Origin: an uncultured Trueperaceae bacterium
GTDB lineage: Bacteria > Deinococcota > Deinococci > Deinococcales > Trueperaceae
DNA length: 64,000 nt
Assembly (NCBI GenBank): GCA_963815215.1
Contig: CAWFFU010000011.1
Coordinates: 320,001-384,000 of the forward strand
Reading direction: 5' to 3'
The translations under genes were made by a program, and so were the position numbers. Under the pieces are notes generated by a model that saw only the letters and a list, made by a program, of their open reading frames with translations, was not told the DNA's origin and did not search any database. Positions 35,954-46,352 of this stretch are shown in pieces. Position 1 is the stretch's first letter; each line of letters begins with the position of its first letter.

Positions 35954-38940
35954 GTGAAGCGTTTCCTCTCCGTTGCGTAGCATTGCCCTTGCCCTCGTTG
36001 CCATGGCCGTGCTGGGCGTTCTGACGTTGGCGTCGGCTCAGACCTTGACCGTCGAGGCGCCGCCGGGGAGGCTGGCGCAACCGGGGGACTACGTGACGCT
36101 GGTGTTCCTGGTCCGGAGCGCGTCGGACATGACGGCTGGCCTGGACGCAAGGTCCTCGCACGGTTGGCAGCTCCTGGGACCGACCTCGACCGTGACGCTC
36201 TCCGCAGGCTCGACCCAACCTGTGGCCGTCACGGTCGGCCGTCCCTCCGACCGCCGTCGGCGGGCGACGCCCGACGAGGTGACGCTGACGGCGGTCGGCG
36301 GCGGCCAGCAGGCGTCGGCATCGTTCGGAGATCGAGGTCGCGCAACACCTGGATCTTCAGCTCCAAGCCCCCGCTCAGGTCGTCGTCGGAGGATCCCTGA
36401 ACGTCACGGTCACGAACGCCGGGAATGTGACGACGGGGGCGACCGTGAGCGCCAGCGTCGACGGCCAGCCGGTCGGCTCAAAGGACGTCACGGTGCAGCC
36501 CGGCAAGCAGGTGACGCTCAGCTTCCCCGTGAGCCAGGAGGGGCGGTATCAGGTCCGGCTGCTGCGCAACGACAAGGTCGTGGCCGTGCGGTTCGTCGAC
36601 ACCGTGGTGAACGGTCTTCCAAAGCCCGCCACGTTCACCCTCTCGGGGACCGCGTCCGCCAACCTCGACACCGACGGGATGTGGGGGGCCTCCGTCGACG
36701 TCAAGGGCGCGCTGTCCGACGAAGCGAGTCTCGACGCCAGCGTCCGAGCCGACGCCCCACTGCGGAGTTACGTCGCGCTCCAGTCCACGTCGGTCAGAGC
36801 ACGCCTCGGCGATATGGCGAACGATCCTCTCGGACTGCCGCCGTTGCAGGGCTTCGGCATGTCGGCGATGGTCGCGCCCGGTAGCTACGCTCTCGAGGGC
36901 AGCGCAGCCTGGCTGGAGGGACCTCGGTACGCGGGGCGGTTCGAGCTCGGCTACCGCCGCGCCGCGCAGGACCTCAGCCTCGTGGGCGGTCTGGGGATGA
37001 CGGCAGGCAAGGTCGCGGCTGCCGCCCGGATGAGCGGTACGTTCGATCACGGAAGTGCTGTCGTGCGCGGAAGCTACGACGGGCAGAGCGTCACCGCGAG
37101 CTACCAGATGCAGGCCAGGGACTCCACCGGCAACTATTCCGTCGGCGTGATCCTCAGCGACGCCCTCACCGACTACGGGCGGCTCGACCTCAGCGCGAAT
37201 TACGTCGCGGGCCACACGGCCGCCTTCGCTGTCGGCACCGTACCCCTCGGTGTACAGGCGGCGGGGATGGCACAGGTCGGTGGGGAGATGCGCCTCGCAT
37301 CGGTCGATTCCGGAAGCCTCAGCGCGGCAGCGGCCCTAGGCGACGTCGAGTCGTACGCCCGGGTCTCCTTCGACCCGAGCCCGCGACAGAGCGTTCGCCC
37401 TTCTGCTTCCGCCGGCGTCGTCTATCAACCCCAGGATCTCGGCTGGGGTGTCGCCTTCGACGCCCGCCTCGGGTTGGGAAGCACATCCGGCGCCCACGCC
37501 GGCTGGTCGTCGTCGGCCGAGCTTCGGGGACGCTACTTCCCCGGATCCGACGCCATCCGCGGACGGCTGAGCCTCCGCACCCTCGGGAACCTCGCCCCGG
37601 CGACCGTGTTCGGTTCTGCAGGGTGGGACCTCGGAACGGGGACCGTGAGCGTGGGCACCGGAACCATCTTGACTACCGGACCGTGGACCTTCCAACTGAA
37701 TGCCGGGGGACAGTATGCGCCTGCGTCCACGTATGCGTGGAGCGCTCAGCTCGGGCTCCACGCACGTTGGGCGTTCGACCTGCCCGTGCCCGAAGCGGTC
37801 GTCCAGGCGGCCGGGGGACGACGGCTCGGTACCGTGGTCGTCCAGGTGTCGGCCGATGGGGAGCCTGTGGCGGGAGTCCCCATCGCCGTCGGTCGCTACC
37901 GCATCCAGTCCGATGCAAGCGGTAGCGTCACGCTGCGTCTGCCGCCCGGGCGCCGGACCGTCTCGGTCGCCCTCCAAACGCTCGCCGCGAACATGCAGCT
38001 CGTAGGCCCGGGCTCGCGGACCGTGGAGATCCAGAACGGAACGACGATCCACGTCGAGTTCCGGCTTCGGCGAACGGCCGCGGTCGAGGGACGCGTGTTG
38101 AGCGACGCCAACGGTGACGGGGCCGCGGACACACCCGAGCGCGCCGTCGCCGCGACGATCCTCGTGCAGGACGCGGGTGGCCAGAGCCAGGTCGTCCACA
38201 CGCGCCCGGATGGCACGTTCGTGGTTCGCGGGCTTCCGAAGGGGCAGACACGCGTCGAGGTCGTCGAGACACCACCCGGTTCCGCAGTCGTGGGCAAGAC
38301 GGAACAACGACTGACACTCTCGGCAGGTGGCACGAGCACCGTCCAGTTCCTCGTGCAGCCGGCAGCGGCGAGAGCGACTACCTTCGGCGGCGGCGGCCTG
38401 ACCGTCCGCGACATCCGGCCGGAGGTCGATGCCGCCCCTCCCGGCAGCGCTCCGCTCGTCACCATCACCACGACGGGTCGACCGGACCGGGTCGATATCG
38501 ACGTCGGCGGCCACACCCTCGAGGCGCAACGCGGACCCGACGGAGCGTGGACCGCGCGCATCCAGGTGCCCCCTGGTGCCGCCGGCGTCGTCACGTTCCG
38601 CGTGCGCGCCGTGCGTGGTGGATCCACCGTGTCGCGCAGCAGCCAGCTCGTCGTGAGCGGCGATGTCCCCCTGGTTTCGATCGAGCCCATACCCCCCCTG
38701 AGGGCAGGCGCCACCGCGACGCTGACCGTTCACGTCCTCTTCGCCGCGACCTCCGTCACGTCCCGACTCGGCGGCGAAGCGACCGTGCCCATGACCGAGA
38801 CGTCGCCCGGACGGTGGACCGCCCAGATCAGGGCCCCGGAAACGAGCGATCAGGCCGAGGTACCGTTGCGCATCACGGCCCTCCGCGGTGGCGGCGAGAG
38901 CACCGTGCTATCGAAGACGCTGCGCGTGCTGCCGCGCTGA
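35954..38940 (+). CDS. Large exported usher-like protein (Ig-like domains, beta-barrel-like core, C-terminal Ig/SdrD-B-like domains); 5' part frameshifted
   Basis: Signal peptide and QPGDYVTLVF in one frame; after indels near 35965 and 36240-36330 the frame EIEVAQHLDLQLQAPAQVVVGGSLNVTVTNAGN joins the 837-aa ORF; amphipathic beta-strand region, then GRVLSDANGDG domain. Confidence 0.6.
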
Positions 38941-39091
38941 ACGAGCCCTCGGAGGCAGCTGGCGCCCAGGGTCCGACCCCATCGCGTGCGGACGCGCACG
39001 GATGCGGCGCACGCTGTTCCCGCATGTGCCGTTCCCGCCCCACCGCTACGTGGAAGCGGGCGTGCTGCGCCGGGGGATGCGCGCCGCGATC

Positions 39092-39968
39092 CTAGGGTGA
39101 CGTAACCGAGTAGGTGACGACAGCGTTGTAGCTCCCTGCCGTCTCGCCGCCGGTGATGCCGAGCGCGAAGTCGTCGGGGACGATGACGGTCGCGAAGCTG
39201 CCGCCCGTGCCGGGCCCCGTCGCAACGATGCTGGCACCGGCGCCGAGCGCAACGCCCCTCACGCGCACGGCTCCGGCCGTGCCTGCAGACCCGGACCCGC
39301 TCCAGGTCAGGGTTGCCGTCATCGTGTAGGGCGAGGCAGACAGGACATCGACCGACGTGAGCGTCGTGCCCTGGGCCGTCGGGGGCAGGGTGCCGCCGAT
39401 CGCGGAGTAGTACGCCAGCGGGGTCGTTGGCGTAGTCGAAGGCCACCGTGTCGCCGCCCGAGAGCGCGCGCCACGACGCGGCGGCATGATGACCCGGATC
39501 GTGTTGGTGACGGAGTTGGCGCCGATCAGCGTGTACGTCACGGTCACGGTGTAGGTACCCGGCGCCACGGCCACCGGTCAGGTGCAGCAAGTAGTGACAT
39601 CCACCCCGCCGTCCTGAAGCGCCAACCCCAGTTGGCGTCGAACACCGTCTGTTGCGAGGTTGAGAGCATGACCTCGGGGACCGCCCCGTGCGTCGTCGAC
39701 GCTGTAGTCGGCGATGAGCTCGAACGGCACCGGGATGTTGCTCGCCACCACGACGCGCACGTTCCCCCAGGCCTGGATGGTGAAGTTGATGGAATCCGAG
39801 CTCGGGTCCGGCGCGATCCGGCCCGGATCGTTGCCGGTCGACGCGCTCGTACACCTGCTGCGCCGTCGGGCTGGAAAATGACCGTGCCGATGTCTCTGCG
39901 CAAGCGTGAGGCCGGCGAGTGCCGAGCGGCCACAGTTCGCGAGTACGACCTCGGACCGACGTCAGCAC
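39092..39968 (-). CDS. Two-domain fimbrial/adhesin-like protein (frameshifted in this sequence)
   Basis: Two beta-rich domains each ending in a pilin-type strand: APGTYTVTVTYTL and AGSYNAVVTYSVTSP*; several indels in the 5' half. Confidence 0.55.
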
Positions 39969-39975
39969 CGATGCC

Positions 39976-40770
39976 TCAGTTCCTCAACTGGAAGGGAAGC
40001 TGCCCTGCGAGCGAGCCTCCTCGAGAGTCCTCGATCAGTGCGAGGGCAACGTAGTAGCCGGGGGCAAGATCCTTCGGCAAGGCCAGGTCGATCTCGCCTC
40101 GCTCTCTCGCATGACGGGCTTGTCCTGAACGGGGAGCGTCGCCACTGTCTTGCCCGTGGCGTCGCGGAACTCGACCTGGCCCGCTGGCGCGCATCAAGGT
40201 GTTGCCTTGGTTGTTAACGACCACCTTCAGAGTTTTCCCGTCGAGATACATGTCGCTCAGGGTCGACCCGGTGGTGGCCGTCCCCGCGATCGTCACGTAG
40301 ACGATCAGTCCGAGCCGCTGGCGCGTGACGAACTGCGCGCCCGGCCCGCTGCTCGCCTGGGCTCGGTCTGCGAAGAAAACCACGCTCTGGTAGGTGCCAG
40401 CCAGGCTGCGGTCGTTGGGCACGTGCGACGGTGATGCGGACCGTGGTCTGTGCTGCCGGGGGCAACGCAGACGTGCTCACGCTGGGCGTCGATCCAGCTC
40501 GTCGCGCTATGGGGCGCCGATCCCGCGGGCAGGAACCTCAGCTTCCCGTCGCTCGCCTGCACCCAGTCCCCGATGCTCACGGTCAGCGGGACGCTGGTTC
40601 GCGGAGGTGCTGAAGACCGTGACCTCGGCACTCGTCGTGCCGCCCGGAGGAACGGTGAGCGGAGATGCGTGCAGGGGACAGCCCGATGTCCGCCGCGAGT
40701 GCGGCGGACATCGTGGTCAGGAGGGCGAGGAGTGGGCGACGCTGGCGAGGAGAGCGCGGGACGTTCGCAT
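39976..40770 (-). CDS. Periplasmic pilus-assembly chaperone-like protein (frameshifted in this sequence)
   Basis: Reconstructed across frames: signal peptide, DIGLSPARI.LTVPPGG, VSIGDWVQ..GKLRFLPAGS...SATSWI, GTYQSVVFF, RLGLIVYV, VVNNQGNTLMR.SGQVEFRD, LAPGYYVALALI. Confidence 0.65.
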
Positions 40771-40774
40771 CGGT

Positions 40775-41325
40775 CTACTGCGCCGTCAGGGTGTAGATGA
40801 TGTCGTAGGTGTAGGTCGCCCGGCGCTGAGCGTGCCGTCGAGCGTCAGAGGTCAGTCACTGCTCGTGAAGACGAGCGCAGTCTTGCCCCGCGTCGACGTG
40901 CAGCGCGTAGTAGCCGTCGAAGGCGTCGCGCCACCGATCGAGATGGACGCGCTCAGGACGCTGGGATCGGAGCGCCGTCGTGGAGTTGCCGCTTTGCCGT
41001 CGCGCCACGGTGAAGTCGGCGCCGCCGGTCGTTGGTGAAGGCGCTGAACTCCTGGAAGCCATTCCCCAGCCGGACTGATCGTCGAGGGGCTCGCGCTGAC
41101 GGCGTTGTAGAGTCGGAGTCCGCCGGGCTCGAAGGTGAGTCGTCGTCGCCGCTCGTCGCCGATGATGTGCAGCGCAACGACGGTTGGCAGGGTGATGATC
41201 AGCTGGTGTTGCTGTCGGCTTGGGCCGTGCCGCCAGGCCGCCGTCGGACGTCTGCGCCGAAGGCTGCGCCGCCGAGGAGCGGCGGCGACGGTGAGGATGA
41301 GTCGGTGAAACAGTGCCTTTTTCAT
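40775..41325 (-). CDS. Major pilin-like secreted subunit (frameshifted in this sequence)
   Basis: GGAGGG RBS, MKKALF signal peptide, HQLIITLPTVVALHI, C-terminal LTLDGTLSAG(T)YTYDIIYTLTAQ* beta-zipper-like motif; about 170-180 aa when repaired. Confidence 0.6.
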
Positions 41326-41346
41326 GTCTTTCCCTCCGGAATGAAA

Positions 41347-41421
41347 CTTCGGCCGGTCGCGCTACTAGCTCCACCTGTCCCAAGCGCCCGAATACAGGAT
41401 CAGGTTTCATCGCTTCCGAAG
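41347..41421 (-). ncRNA. c-di-GMP-II (class II cyclic-di-GMP) riboswitch
   Basis: Minus strand CTTCGG-AAGCGATGAA-ACCTGATCC-TGTATTCGGGCGCTT-GGGACAGGT-GGAGCTAGTAGCGCGACCGG-CCGAAG: P1 CTTCGG/CCGAAG, kink-turn TGAA/GGA, loop GCGCT pairing with AGCGC (pseudoknot); matches the class II pattern GAAAC..UGAA...GGGCACUU...GGAGUUAGUAGUGCAACC. Confidence 0.85.
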
Positions 41422-41830
41422 GGATCCCCACCAGCTCGATTTGGTGGGGGGTTCGTAAGACTGACTGGAGCCTAGCCAGGGCGGACTTACAGAACTCTTA
41501 GTCGGAGCGCTGTTTGTGGAGTCTTTAACGCGTCCTGGACGGGTTTGTTGGAAATTCCACAGAATCCGGCTCGCCCCGGCCTCTTCGGATGAGCACCAGA
41601 GATGCTGTCCTGCACGAAGCTCCGCCTTCGTCGGCGCCACCGCGACGAGAACAGGTCGTCCGTCGGACGCGCCGGTCCCCGAAAGCGCGGCGCCGCACAG
41701 CCTAAGCACAACCCGAGCGCACCCCGGGCCTAGCGCCGGCATAGCGCCGCCGATCCCGCGCCCACCGTGCGCCCACCCCTTTGGCCACGCCTTCGCCACC
41801 CCTCCCCCACCCCGCGCCTACACTGAGAGC

Positions 41831-42135
41831 ATGGATGATGGGCCCGAAGCCACACCCCGCGGCGACACCCCGACGACCACCCCGACGACCGCCCCGCCAT
41901 CCGCCTGGACAACGTGCTCAAGCTCGCCGGCATCGCCGAGACCGGCGGTCAGGCGAAGCGCATGATCCAGGCCGGCGAGGTGCTGGTGAACGGCACCGTC
42001 GAGACGCGCCGCAAGCACATGCTGCACGAAGGGGACGAGGTCGGGGTCGGGGACGAGAGCTTCGTGGTCGAGCTGACAGACGAGGACGATCTCGCCGACG
42101 ATCTGGACGAAGAACCGGGCGAGCACCGGGCCTAG
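41831..42135 (+). CDS. S4-domain RNA-binding protein (YaaA/YbcJ-like); one apparent indel near the 5' end
   Basis: IRLDNVLKLAGIAETGGQAK.MIQAGEVLVNG.VETRRK; TACACT box 6 nt before the ATG at 41831, which is out of frame with the S4 domain. Confidence 0.85.
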
Positions 42136-42166
42136 GACACACGGCCTAGGACACACGGCCTAGGAC
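42129..42166 (+). repeat. 14-bp tandem repeat GGCCTAGGACACAC, about 2.7 copies, overlapping the S4 gene stop
   Basis: Copies at 42129-42142, 42143-42156 and a partial at 42157-42166. Confidence 0.9.
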
Positions 42167-42343
42167 GCTCGCGGCCGGCCTCCCGCCGGGACCCGATGCT
42201 GGGACCCTCCCCCGGCACCACCCGATGGGACCACCCGCTGACGCAACCCCCCTGAACCCAGCCCCCTGGATCGAGTCCACCATTCCAGCCCGCTGAGATG
42301 GCCCGCTGCGACCGCCGCCACCGCCCGACACCGACGCGCTCGA

Positions 42344-42994
42344 TCAGAGCGAGGCGAGCACCTCCACCTTCAAGCCGTCCAGCGCCACCGGCTCCACCCT
42401 CTCCCCCGGGTACCACAAAGTGCGCGATCGGAACCTCCCCGCGGCGGGCGCCCGGTAGACCTCGAGCCAGACGTTCTCCAGGTCGAGCAGCCACACCTCA
42501 CCCACGCCGCCGCGGGCGTAGCGCGGCAAACGCGCGTCCATCGAACGGGCGCCACGCAGGACCTCGACCGCCAGCAGCGCCTCACCGCCGGCACGCGACG
42601 CCTCGCGTCCGAAGCGAGGTGAGGCATCGAGCAACGCCAGATCGGGACGCAGCAGGTCGCGCGGGCCGAGCCGCAGCGGCGGCAGGAAGGCCAGCTCGGC
42701 ACGTCCCAGCAGCACGGGCTCGAGCCGCGAGGCCAGCCCGACGACCGCGGCCACCTCGACCGACCGGGGCAGCGGCGGCACCTCGACCCTGCCGTCGATC
42801 AGCTCCGCCCGCGGTCCCGCGGGCAACGCCCCGGCCCGTTGCCGGGCCAGGAACTCGGCTACGCTGGTGCGCCCGCCGCCCGCTCCGCGGATGCGTGCGC
42901 CGTCCGGCGCGTGCGCGGGACCGTCCCGGAACGGGACCGGATCCTCCTGCAGAACCAGCCGCGGCACCGTCCCGCAGCTCGTCCACCATCCCAT
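42344..42994 (-). CDS. Uma2/DUF820 family putative endonuclease (start uncertain)
   Basis: RAELIDG, RPDLALL, LLAVEV, RYARGGVGEVWLLDL...LEVYR. Confidence 0.8.
   Translation of the reverse strand: MGWWTSCGTVPRLVLQEDPVPFRDGPAHAPDGARIRGAGGGRTSVAEFLARQRAGALPAGPRAELIDGRVEVPPLPRSVEVAAVVGLASRLEPVLLGRAELAFLPPLRLGPRDLLRPDLALLDASPRFGREASRAGGEALLAVEVLRGARSMDARLPRYARGGVGEVWLLDLENVWLEVYRAPAAGRFRSRTLWYPGERVEPVALDGLKVEVLASL

Positions 42995-43271: not shown

Positions 43272-46352
<3,081 letters not shown>

Follow-up and report, generated by a model that had tools for sequence, protein, structure and literature searches.

A c-di-GMP-II-type leader with a variant ligand pocket and a probable translational switch before a predicted pilus operon in a Trueperaceae genome

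We asked how a structured RNA leader in a Trueperaceae genome controls the gene behind it, and which signal it reads. The leader lies in a 64-kb stretch of DNA (the window) that corresponds to positions 320001-384000 of contig C11 in the genome of an uncultured Trueperaceae bacterium (here G000; 3.3 Mb, 70% G+C, 97% complete), and all leader coordinates below are on the minus strand. An earlier note on this DNA had proposed a c-di-GMP-II aptamer (c-di-GMP, cyclic di-GMP) acting as a translational ON switch on a pilin-like gene. When the window was scanned with Infernal against 4227 Rfam families, the sole match was RF01786 (c-di-GMP-II) at 41343-41426, which covered the full model (1-84 of 84) and reached 65.0 bits, above the gathering score of 53.5, with E 2.9e-12 for the window; it was reproduced when the scan was restricted to 401 bases around the locus, which bears out the proposed aptamer. 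The same Rfam family was matched in one of 14 control genomes (Deinococcus radiodurans) and in 115 of 128 genomes of the bacterial family, with ∼557 matches in total (tallies over these 128 genomes include one unpublished genome, G118, on which no other claim depends). Taken with the evidence below, the leader is most likely a translational ON switch of the c-di-GMP-II fold that works by competition for the 5′ strand of helix P1.

One aptamer strand with two partners

All secondary-structure elements of the c-di-GMP-II class (P1, P2, the kink-turn, P3 and the pseudoknot that links the P3 loop with the 3′ strand) were present at the locus. P1 consists of CUUCGG (41421-41416) and CCGAAG (41352-41347), placed there by both the cmscan alignment and a constrained fold, and the pseudoknot joins CGGGCGC of the P3 loop (41390-41384) to a 3′ strand at 41362-41353, as the cmscan alignment shows. 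In that alignment the first pair of P2 (A-U), the kink-turn bases and A13, A61, C68, A70, C71, C72 and G73 matched the consensus. Among 86 distinct aptamers the pseudoknot tetramers covaried (GCGC/GCGC in 77, GCAU/AUGC in 5, GCGU/ACGC in 2 and GCAC/GUGC in 2). Judged by its sequence, the RNA at 41343-41426 is a genuine riboswitch of the known c-di-GMP-II fold.

Can the same strand form something else? The earlier note had named two complementary segments, a GGAGGG Shine-Dalgarno (SD) sequence and an upstream hairpin, and each was found where it had been placed: CGGAAGCGAUGAAAC at 41418-41404, GUUUCAUUCCG at 41347-41337, GGAGGG at 41337-41332 and the hairpin at 41449-41426. The ATG lies at 41325-41323, 6 nucleotides (nt) past the SD, and is aligned as the start in six orthologues. 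The minimum free energy (MFE) structure of the leader (41455-41315; -56.2 kcal/mol, z -3.02, with 1 of 200 dinucleotide shuffles equally stable) contained ten consecutive pairs, U41424-A41415 with U41340-A41331. Here the anti-SD strand UCCCUUCGGA (41424-41415), which overlaps the 5′ strand of P1, is paired with UCCGGAGGGA (41340-41331), which contains the SD and is a near copy of the 3′ strand of P1. This helix covered all of GGAGGG, and in the unconstrained ensemble each of these six bases was paired with a probability of at least 0.998. Beyond the 10-base-pair (bp) helix and a 4-nt bulge, AUGAA(AC) was paired with GUUUCAU in the MFE structure; these strands, AUGAAAC of the kink-turn and the start of P3 (41410-41404) and the linker GUUUCAU (41347-41341), which was followed by comparison of orthologues, make up an accessory half-helix with a duplex energy of -5.0 kcal/mol. 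When P1, P2 and P3 were enforced, the energy was -40.0 kcal/mol, GGAG (41337-41334) was unpaired and G41333-41332 lay in a weak local stem. A second partner for the linker UUUCAU (41346-41341) would be AUGAAA at the start codon (41325-41320), a hexamer identical to that of the kink-turn at 41410-41405; this pairing was set aside, as it was not conserved in orthologues.

The alternative helix uses nucleotides of the P1 5′ strand (41421-41416) and of the kink-turn segment (41410-41404), and it therefore excludes P1 and the kink-turn, as had been claimed. The claim that it abuts or occludes the ribosome-binding site held in its second form, since the 10-bp helix covers all of GGAGGG, but the complementarity extends past the SD boundary at which it had been drawn. 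The calculated duplex energies were -16.9 kcal/mol for the anti-SD core, -23.4 kcal/mol for the full alternative helix, -7.0 kcal/mol for P1 and -11.3 kcal/mol for the pseudoknot. The anti-SD duplex thus outweighs P1, and the ligand-free state would therefore be OFF; from the same energies we estimate that the pseudoknot and ligand binding together could be of the right size to reverse this. In c-di-GMP-II structures the floor of the pocket is formed by a non-canonical P1 pair (PMC13715770), and therefore ligand binding bears directly on P1.

The proposed mechanism follows the two partners of CUUCGG, which could pair either with CCGAAG to form P1 or, as part of UCCCUUCGGA, with UCCGGAGGGA. Without ligand the longer anti-SD helix would win, aided here by AUGAAAC/GUUUCAU, and the ribosome-binding site would be buried. 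With ligand, the pocket, the pseudoknot and P1 would lock CUUCGG into the aptamer, which would leave the SD and the ATG accessible for translation of the leading gene of a predicted chaperone-type pilus operon. Terminator-like sites were absent from 40700-42200 (0 found), and the strand that pairs with the SD in the alternative fold is also used by the ligand-stabilised helix, an arrangement of the SD-sequestering kind. Because the SD is paired in the ligand-free fold and there is no terminator-like site, a translational ON switch fits, in line with what the earlier note had supposed; we infer from this arrangement its ON direction and its dependence on a ligand.

The helix in related leaders

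Is the competing helix conserved? When the DNA of 41 genomes (G000 plus 40 relatives) was searched, leaders that could be aligned from the hairpin to the start codon turned up in G003, G004, G006, G007 and G019, and a pattern search for the G69 form of the aptamer (named after the pocket base described below) added another in G048. The aptamer, UCCCUUCGGA and UCCGGAGGGA did not vary in the six-way alignment (6/6). The pairing of the accessory half-helix was kept by compensatory changes on both sides in G006 (AUGAAGC/GCUUCAU), by a G-U wobble in G019 and by compensating changes in G048; it had one mismatch in G003 and G004 and was lost in G007.

Across the 128 family genomes the G69 pattern search returned 30 loci, among which we recognised by eye five chance matches in coding DNA and one doubtful case; the pattern also matches coding DNA by chance, a reversed-pattern control was about equally frequent, and the search gives no exact family-wide frequency. 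In a further pattern search of these genomes, the 150 matches listed of 688 contained ∼96 AA, 11 GA and 3 AC forms that looked riboswitch-like by eye. Seventeen leaders from 17 different genomes shared a common layout (a hairpin, CUUCGG or CUCCGG, the aptamer, CCGAAG or CCGGAG, a linker of 2-8 nt, (U)CCGGAGG, 5-8 nt and the ATG), and the genes behind them were pilin-type in seven cases and of two lipoprotein kinds in ten. In all 17 of these G69 leaders containing CCGGAGG the MFE structure paired the SD with the 5′ strand of P1, with a mean pairing probability of 0.80 in two leaders and of 0.99-1.00 in the other 15. CCGGAGG was itself invariant (17/17), and this includes the CC directly 5′ of the SD core although it is dispensable for ribosome binding.

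The alignment of the 17 leaders (A3) also revealed covariation. Over the 11 pairs of the anti-SD helix 88.2% of the cells were paired, and only 36-63% paired when the partner strand was slid by 1-3 columns. Three pairs changed on both sides; pair 9-104 was CG in seven leaders, UA in five and GC in three, and pair 7-106 was CG in five, GC in three and GU in one. The covariation score was 0.203 compared to 0.102 after shuffling, and none of 500 shuffles reached 0.203, a count that is not a probability because the leaders are related sequences. P1 covaried as well: pair 13-85 was UA in 14 leaders and CG in three, and in these three the U-to-C change of P1 also converts a G-U pair of the anti-SD helix into G-C. 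As far as these alignments indicate, the anti-SD half is the conserved and covarying part of the helix, and the AUGAAAC/GUUUCAU half is accessory.

The upstream hairpin, seen in the MFE structure, has an 8-bp stem (CCCCACCA, 41449-41442, with UGGUGGGG, 41433-41426) and an 8-nt loop, and it ends one base before the anti-SD strand. Because it is without a U tract, it is not an intrinsic terminator. Its stem is altered on both sides in orthologues (CCCUUGCC/GGCGAGGG in G006 and CCCCGGC/GCCGGGG in G019), and most of the 17 leaders have a similar hairpin ahead of P1.

Could the leader act mainly on transcription through Rho, or on mRNA stability, with the SD pairing secondary? A leader that is not translated may be exposed to Rho or to RNases, and a role in stability is conceivable for the conserved 5′ hairpin. 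However, no intrinsic terminator was found, the 11-18 nt that separate the aptamer from the SD in the 17 leaders leave no room for a separate platform, and the helix that covaries is the one that covers the SD; we consider control of this kind improbable. Other observations weigh against the translational ON switch itself. With the pseudoknot and ligand terms excluded, the alternative fold is favoured over the aptamer fold by 16 kcal/mol, and the switch may require co-transcriptional folding or stay mostly OFF. P1 is short (6 bp in this leader, 4-5 bp in G003, G004 and G007). Five of the 11 anti-SD pairs, which form the core, never vary and are constrained by P1 and the SD anyway, so that the comparative weight falls mostly on three flanking pairs in related sequences. 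The helix between GTTTCAT and ATGAAAC, on which the earlier note had built, exists in the MFE structure but is not the core: this accessory half occurs in only some of the seven pilin-type leaders and is absent from the ten lipoprotein leaders.

Further upstream, the alignment of seven orthologous regions contained conserved blocks at 41490-41461: GTAAG (41490-41486), then a hexamer TAnnCT (TAGGCT here, 41474-41469, ∼20 nt upstream of the hairpin), then CAG. A scan of 40700-42200 for the sigma-70 consensus found no promoter. The hexamer is a possible -10 element of a putative promoter, and the blocks as a whole may serve as a promoter, or as a site for a regulator, of a type that the sigma-70 scan would miss.

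The G69/C37 pocket and its ligand

Which ligand does the pocket read? Of the two guanines of c-di-GMP in the structure 3Q3Z, one is held by three hydrogen bonds to the A69 sugar edge and the other by G73 and the A70 ribose; A70 itself intercalates, A61 is the ceiling, and the A14-U60 pair stacks on the backbone (PMC13715770). The pocket of 3Q3Z is listed in an excerpt of PMC7288161 as A13, A14, U37, G39, U60, A61, C68-G73 and A74. By our own mapping, Rfam model position n is 3Q3Z position n+1, which fits all 13 listed pocket nucleotides. The window has G (41358) rather than A at position 69 and C (41390) rather than U at position 37, and the remaining pocket bases are unchanged (10 of 12, with position 74 left out as unconserved in the Rfam consensus), among them A70 (A41357) and G73 (G41354). 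By homology the ligand would be a cyclic dinucleotide, and because the pocket has G69/C37 instead of A69/U37, c-di-GMP is not proven.

Variant classes of this fold were a concern already voiced in the earlier note, and aptly so, since G69 together with A70 and G73 is the signature of the variant family c-di-GMP-II-GAG (RF03169; its name is read here from the consensus), whose consensus has G and C at positions 69 and 37 as in the window. The corresponding stretch is GAGACCG in RF03169 and CAACCG in RF01786, compared to CGACCG in the window. At 41343-41426 both variant models passed their cut-offs (RF03169 with 59.3 bits against 40, RF03170 with 54.7 bits against 47.9). RF01786 was the top model of the clan and not RF03169, with a margin of 5.7 bits, because the remaining sequence is nearer to the canonical Deinococcus-type consensus; RF03168 (c-di-GMP-I-UAU) had no match anywhere in the genome. 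When 19 G69 aptamers of relatives were scanned, 12 were called RF01786 and 7 RF03169. The literature searched, which did not include the 2017 paper defining the variant, reported no ligand for c-di-GMP-II-GAG and contained nothing relevant on c-di-GMP-II in Deinococcus. Weinberg et al. in 2017 reportedly only proposed that such variants might recognise other signalling molecules.

Positions 37 and 69 changed together. Over the 86 distinct aptamers we counted 57 with U37/A69, one with U37/A69 and C70, 28 with C37/G69 and no discordant case; the sample was enriched for G69 by the way it was retrieved, and the association of the two positions is independent of this enrichment. As for the signals that the cell can produce, the genome has 22 GGDEF-domain matches and one DAC domain, and therefore c-di-GMP and c-di-AMP can be made. 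No SMODS domain was matched in this 97% complete genome, and from its gene content a source of cyclic GMP-AMP (cGAMP) is not evident. One of the 22 GGDEF domains (G000:C10:246970-247440) has Thr at a candidate Hypr position, which we take, from an unverified register, to be the Asp-to-Ser/Thr determinant of cGAMP-making Hypr GGDEF enzymes, and which we treat as a lead only.

Does a pocket with G69 and C37 still sense c-di-GMP? If the double change is tolerated or tunes the affinity, the leader is an ordinary ON switch for c-di-GMP. This agrees with RF01786 as the best-scoring model of the clan (65.0 bits against 59.3 and 54.7), with the canonical remainder of the pocket, with the 22 GGDEF domains, and with canonical A69 copies in the same genome that precede similar exported proteins, including a pilin-like gene sharing the N-terminal motif. 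However, G at position 69 adds an exocyclic amine on the sugar edge that contacts the guanine (by the contacts in PMC13715770), which might be expected to disturb binding; positions 37 and 69 never change alone (0 of 86 discordant), which looks like a remodelled pocket and not like drift; and Rfam holds the G69 type as a separate variant family. We regard c-di-GMP as a serious candidate, somewhat short of an even prospect.

Alternatively, the G69/C37 type could sense another signal, such as 3′,3′-cGAMP or another cyclic or linear dinucleotide, so that one fold would serve two channels. The equivalent adenine of an engineered Bacillus halodurans aptamer can read either base of cGAMP, G or A (PMC13715770), which implies that this site sets the base preference. 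The perfect covariation of positions 37 and 69 (U/A 58, C/G 28, mixed 0) and the invariance of G69 in 17 leaders from 17 genomes point in the same direction, and a leader in G054, in which a G69 and an A69 aptamer lie 33 nt apart, would make more sense with two inputs. Against this stand the lack of any SMODS-type cyclase match in the genome and the gene contexts of G69 and A69 copies, which are alike in kind (exported proteins in both); the Thr-containing Hypr candidate depends on the presumed register, and many domains have other residues at that position. It seems to us rather unlikely that the G69/C37 aptamers of the family are a ligand class of their own, concealed within the canonical c-di-GMP-II riboswitches, and sense a different dinucleotide. 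The simplest guess would then be 3′,3′-cGAMP, as G69 could read adenine where A69 reads guanine, with G73 kept for the second guanine.

The genome contains six further c-di-GMP-II aptamers outside the window, arranged as three tandem pairs ∼190 nt apart (G000:C11:288378-288653, G000:C8:287590-287833 and G000:C3:1070163-1070436). The genes behind them encode a lipoprotein resembling glycosidases, a large secreted lipoprotein and an intact secreted protein with the N-terminal motif of the pilin-like gene, and another GGDEF gene lies ∼2.5 kb from the pair on C3. The first aptamer of that pair (G000:C3:1070163-1070245) has a third type of pocket, A69/C70, in which the intercalating adenine is replaced; it recurs at similar tandem spacing in G055, G056 and G057, and is absent from the named variants of Rfam, GAG and GCG. 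In G054 (C9, locus positions 1447-1530 and 1564-1647) the G69/C37 and the canonical A69 aptamer share a strand and a leader, and they could form a two-input gate if their ligands differ. Tandem c-di-GMP-II arrangements as such have been described, as an excerpt of PMC9481103 attests.

The controlled operon and known systems

What does the leader control? Gene 1 (40775-41325, minus strand), delimited by a three-frame read and by intact orthologues, would encode a secreted pilin-like protein; gene 2 (39976-40760, minus; tblastn and an orthologue model) a protein with a PapD-like fimbrial chaperone fold; and gene 3 (39092-39960, minus; tblastn) a two-domain pilin-like secreted protein. Genes 2 and 3 are frameshifted and their 5′ limits are approximate. 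The convergent gene 4 (35973-38940, plus), with one frame change near 36323-36331, encodes a large secreted protein whose orthologue in G007 is intact, secreted and convergent, with 989 amino acids (aa). Orthologues of gene 1 are intact, secreted and 185-201 aa long in G004, G007 and G019, and in G004 and G007 they are followed by a 255-256-aa protein and then by a 318-aa protein; in tblastn, gene 2 of G004 and G007 had 37-40% identity to the window. Pfam and NCBIfam scans of the four proteins of the locus gave no family over the cut-off, the gene 2 orthologue had no match to Pfam PapD, and no usher family was found in these scans of gene 4 and its G007 orthologue.

Structure models gave more information. 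The G007 orthologue of gene 2 (30 sequences) was modelled with a predicted local distance difference test (pLDDT) score of 93.8; its best Foldseek match was WxLIP (E 1.5e-11), and it also matched CfaA, CsuC, Caf1M and FimC (E 5e-10 to 8e-9, probability 1.00, template modelling score 0.45-0.6). On this model the protein has the two-Ig PapD-like periplasmic chaperone fold. The gene 1 model (six sequences) had a pLDDT of 77 and a best Foldseek E of 8.7e-3 (FimH pilin domain); a structure comparison with VIA reached a best Z of 5.7, with FimA at 5.0. All of these matches lay below the noise level of the tool, and many of the sub-threshold rows were donor-strand pilins. The products of genes 1 and 3 are secreted and rich in beta structure, have a conserved strand at the N terminus and weakly resemble pilin folds. 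The name pilin-like, as used in the earlier note, is reasonable for gene 1 as a reading of its context, given intact orthologues and the neighbouring chaperone fold, but it is not a family assignment, and the gene is frameshifted in the assembly. The cluster is most likely a chaperone-type pilus operon, a predicted identity.

A further point against a working switch lies in these genes: genes 1-3 (41325-39092, minus) change frame many times in the assembly within ∼2.3 kb, and gene 4 once. Is the operon dead in this organism and the riboswitch an intact leftover? Frame changes occur in the same operon in G003 and G048. However, long open reading frames with high G+C at third codon positions cover much of the remaining window (the largest gap is 38940-41839). 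We compared the window with short contigs from three public metagenomes, in which stretches without contig cover are uninformative and the best run contains at most 0.17 of the sampled words of the stretch. Over parts of gene 3 these contigs had no substitutions in 135-151 nt and one base fewer at 39419 (three runs). Further single-base indels between contigs and window, most of them from one run, fell at 39466-39929. Two runs had an identical leader (from 41312 or 41325 to 41500), with every structural feature kept. Because there are many indels with almost no substitutions, the frame changes are probably consensus error at a strain-variable locus and not an old pseudogene; that the operon is a relic we hold to be unlikely. 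In one contig the leader was identical through codon 5 (41312) and then continued into a different signal peptide and pilin allele, which suggests that the leader is kept while the pilin allele is swapped between strains. Identical leader contigs also occurred in one metatranscriptome, where DNA carry-over is possible, so that transcription is not implied. Upstream of the leader lie genes for a small S4-domain protein (41914-42135, plus) and a Uma2-family putative endonuclease (42344-42994, minus), with carB (43272-46352) beyond the latter.

The c-di-GMP-II fold is already known and common in the family, and tandem arrangements and SD sequestration through a shared P1 strand are known as well. 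Useful beyond annotation are the strict co-change of positions 37 and 69, the mostly canonical automatic labels and a simple platform that eases the ligand question. Clan competition labels this RNA canonical despite the changed ligand-reading base, as it did for 12 of the 19 such aptamers. The leaders, of ∼100 nt and with a one-helix translational platform, are simple test objects, in which U37/A69 and C37/G69 differ by a clean two-base swap. The switch would link a dinucleotide signal to an uncharacterised, predicted chaperone-type pilus operon with a strain-variable pilin gene. If the ligand is c-di-GMP, the leader is an ordinary, well-documented example. If the G69/C37 type were a separate ligand class, one cell would run two second-messenger channels through the same RNA fold, both controlling surface structures, and leaders of the G054 type would wire both in tandem as a two-input gate.

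Finally, we asked how the locus compares with known systems. Like the c-di-GMP-II riboswitch of Clostridium acetobutylicum (RF01786, PDB 3Q3Z), it has a full-length match with P1, P2, kink-turn, P3, pseudoknot and 10 of 12 pocket bases, but it differs in G69/C37 and in its platform, a helix that sequesters the SD. The best-studied c-di-GMP-II examples use terminators. In Clostridium difficile a c-di-GMP-II aptamer is combined with a group I ribozyme, according to the excerpt of PMC9481103. With c-di-GMP-II-GAG (RF03169) the leader shares G69, C37, A70 and G73 and a place next to a gene for an exported protein, whereas the rest of its sequence is closer to the canonical Deinococcus-type consensus. 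Competition for a P1 strand and the pairing of SD with anti-SD are standard riboswitch design in the translational adenine, SAM-II and preQ1 switches. There, and by the proposed mechanism here, the anti-SD is captured by a helix that the ligand stabilises, and the sequence around the SD resembles the 3′ strand of P1; the fold and the ligand class differ, and this leader has an extra 5′ hairpin abutting the switching helix. The operon resembles those of chaperone-usher pili (Fim, Csu and CFA/I) in the chaperone fold of gene 2 and in the beta-rich products of genes 1 and 3 with their N-terminal strand. It differs from them in that no family exceeded the cut-off and no usher family was matched in the Pfam and NCBIfam scans, and the closest structural counterpart of gene 2 is WxLIP rather than a Gram-negative chaperone.

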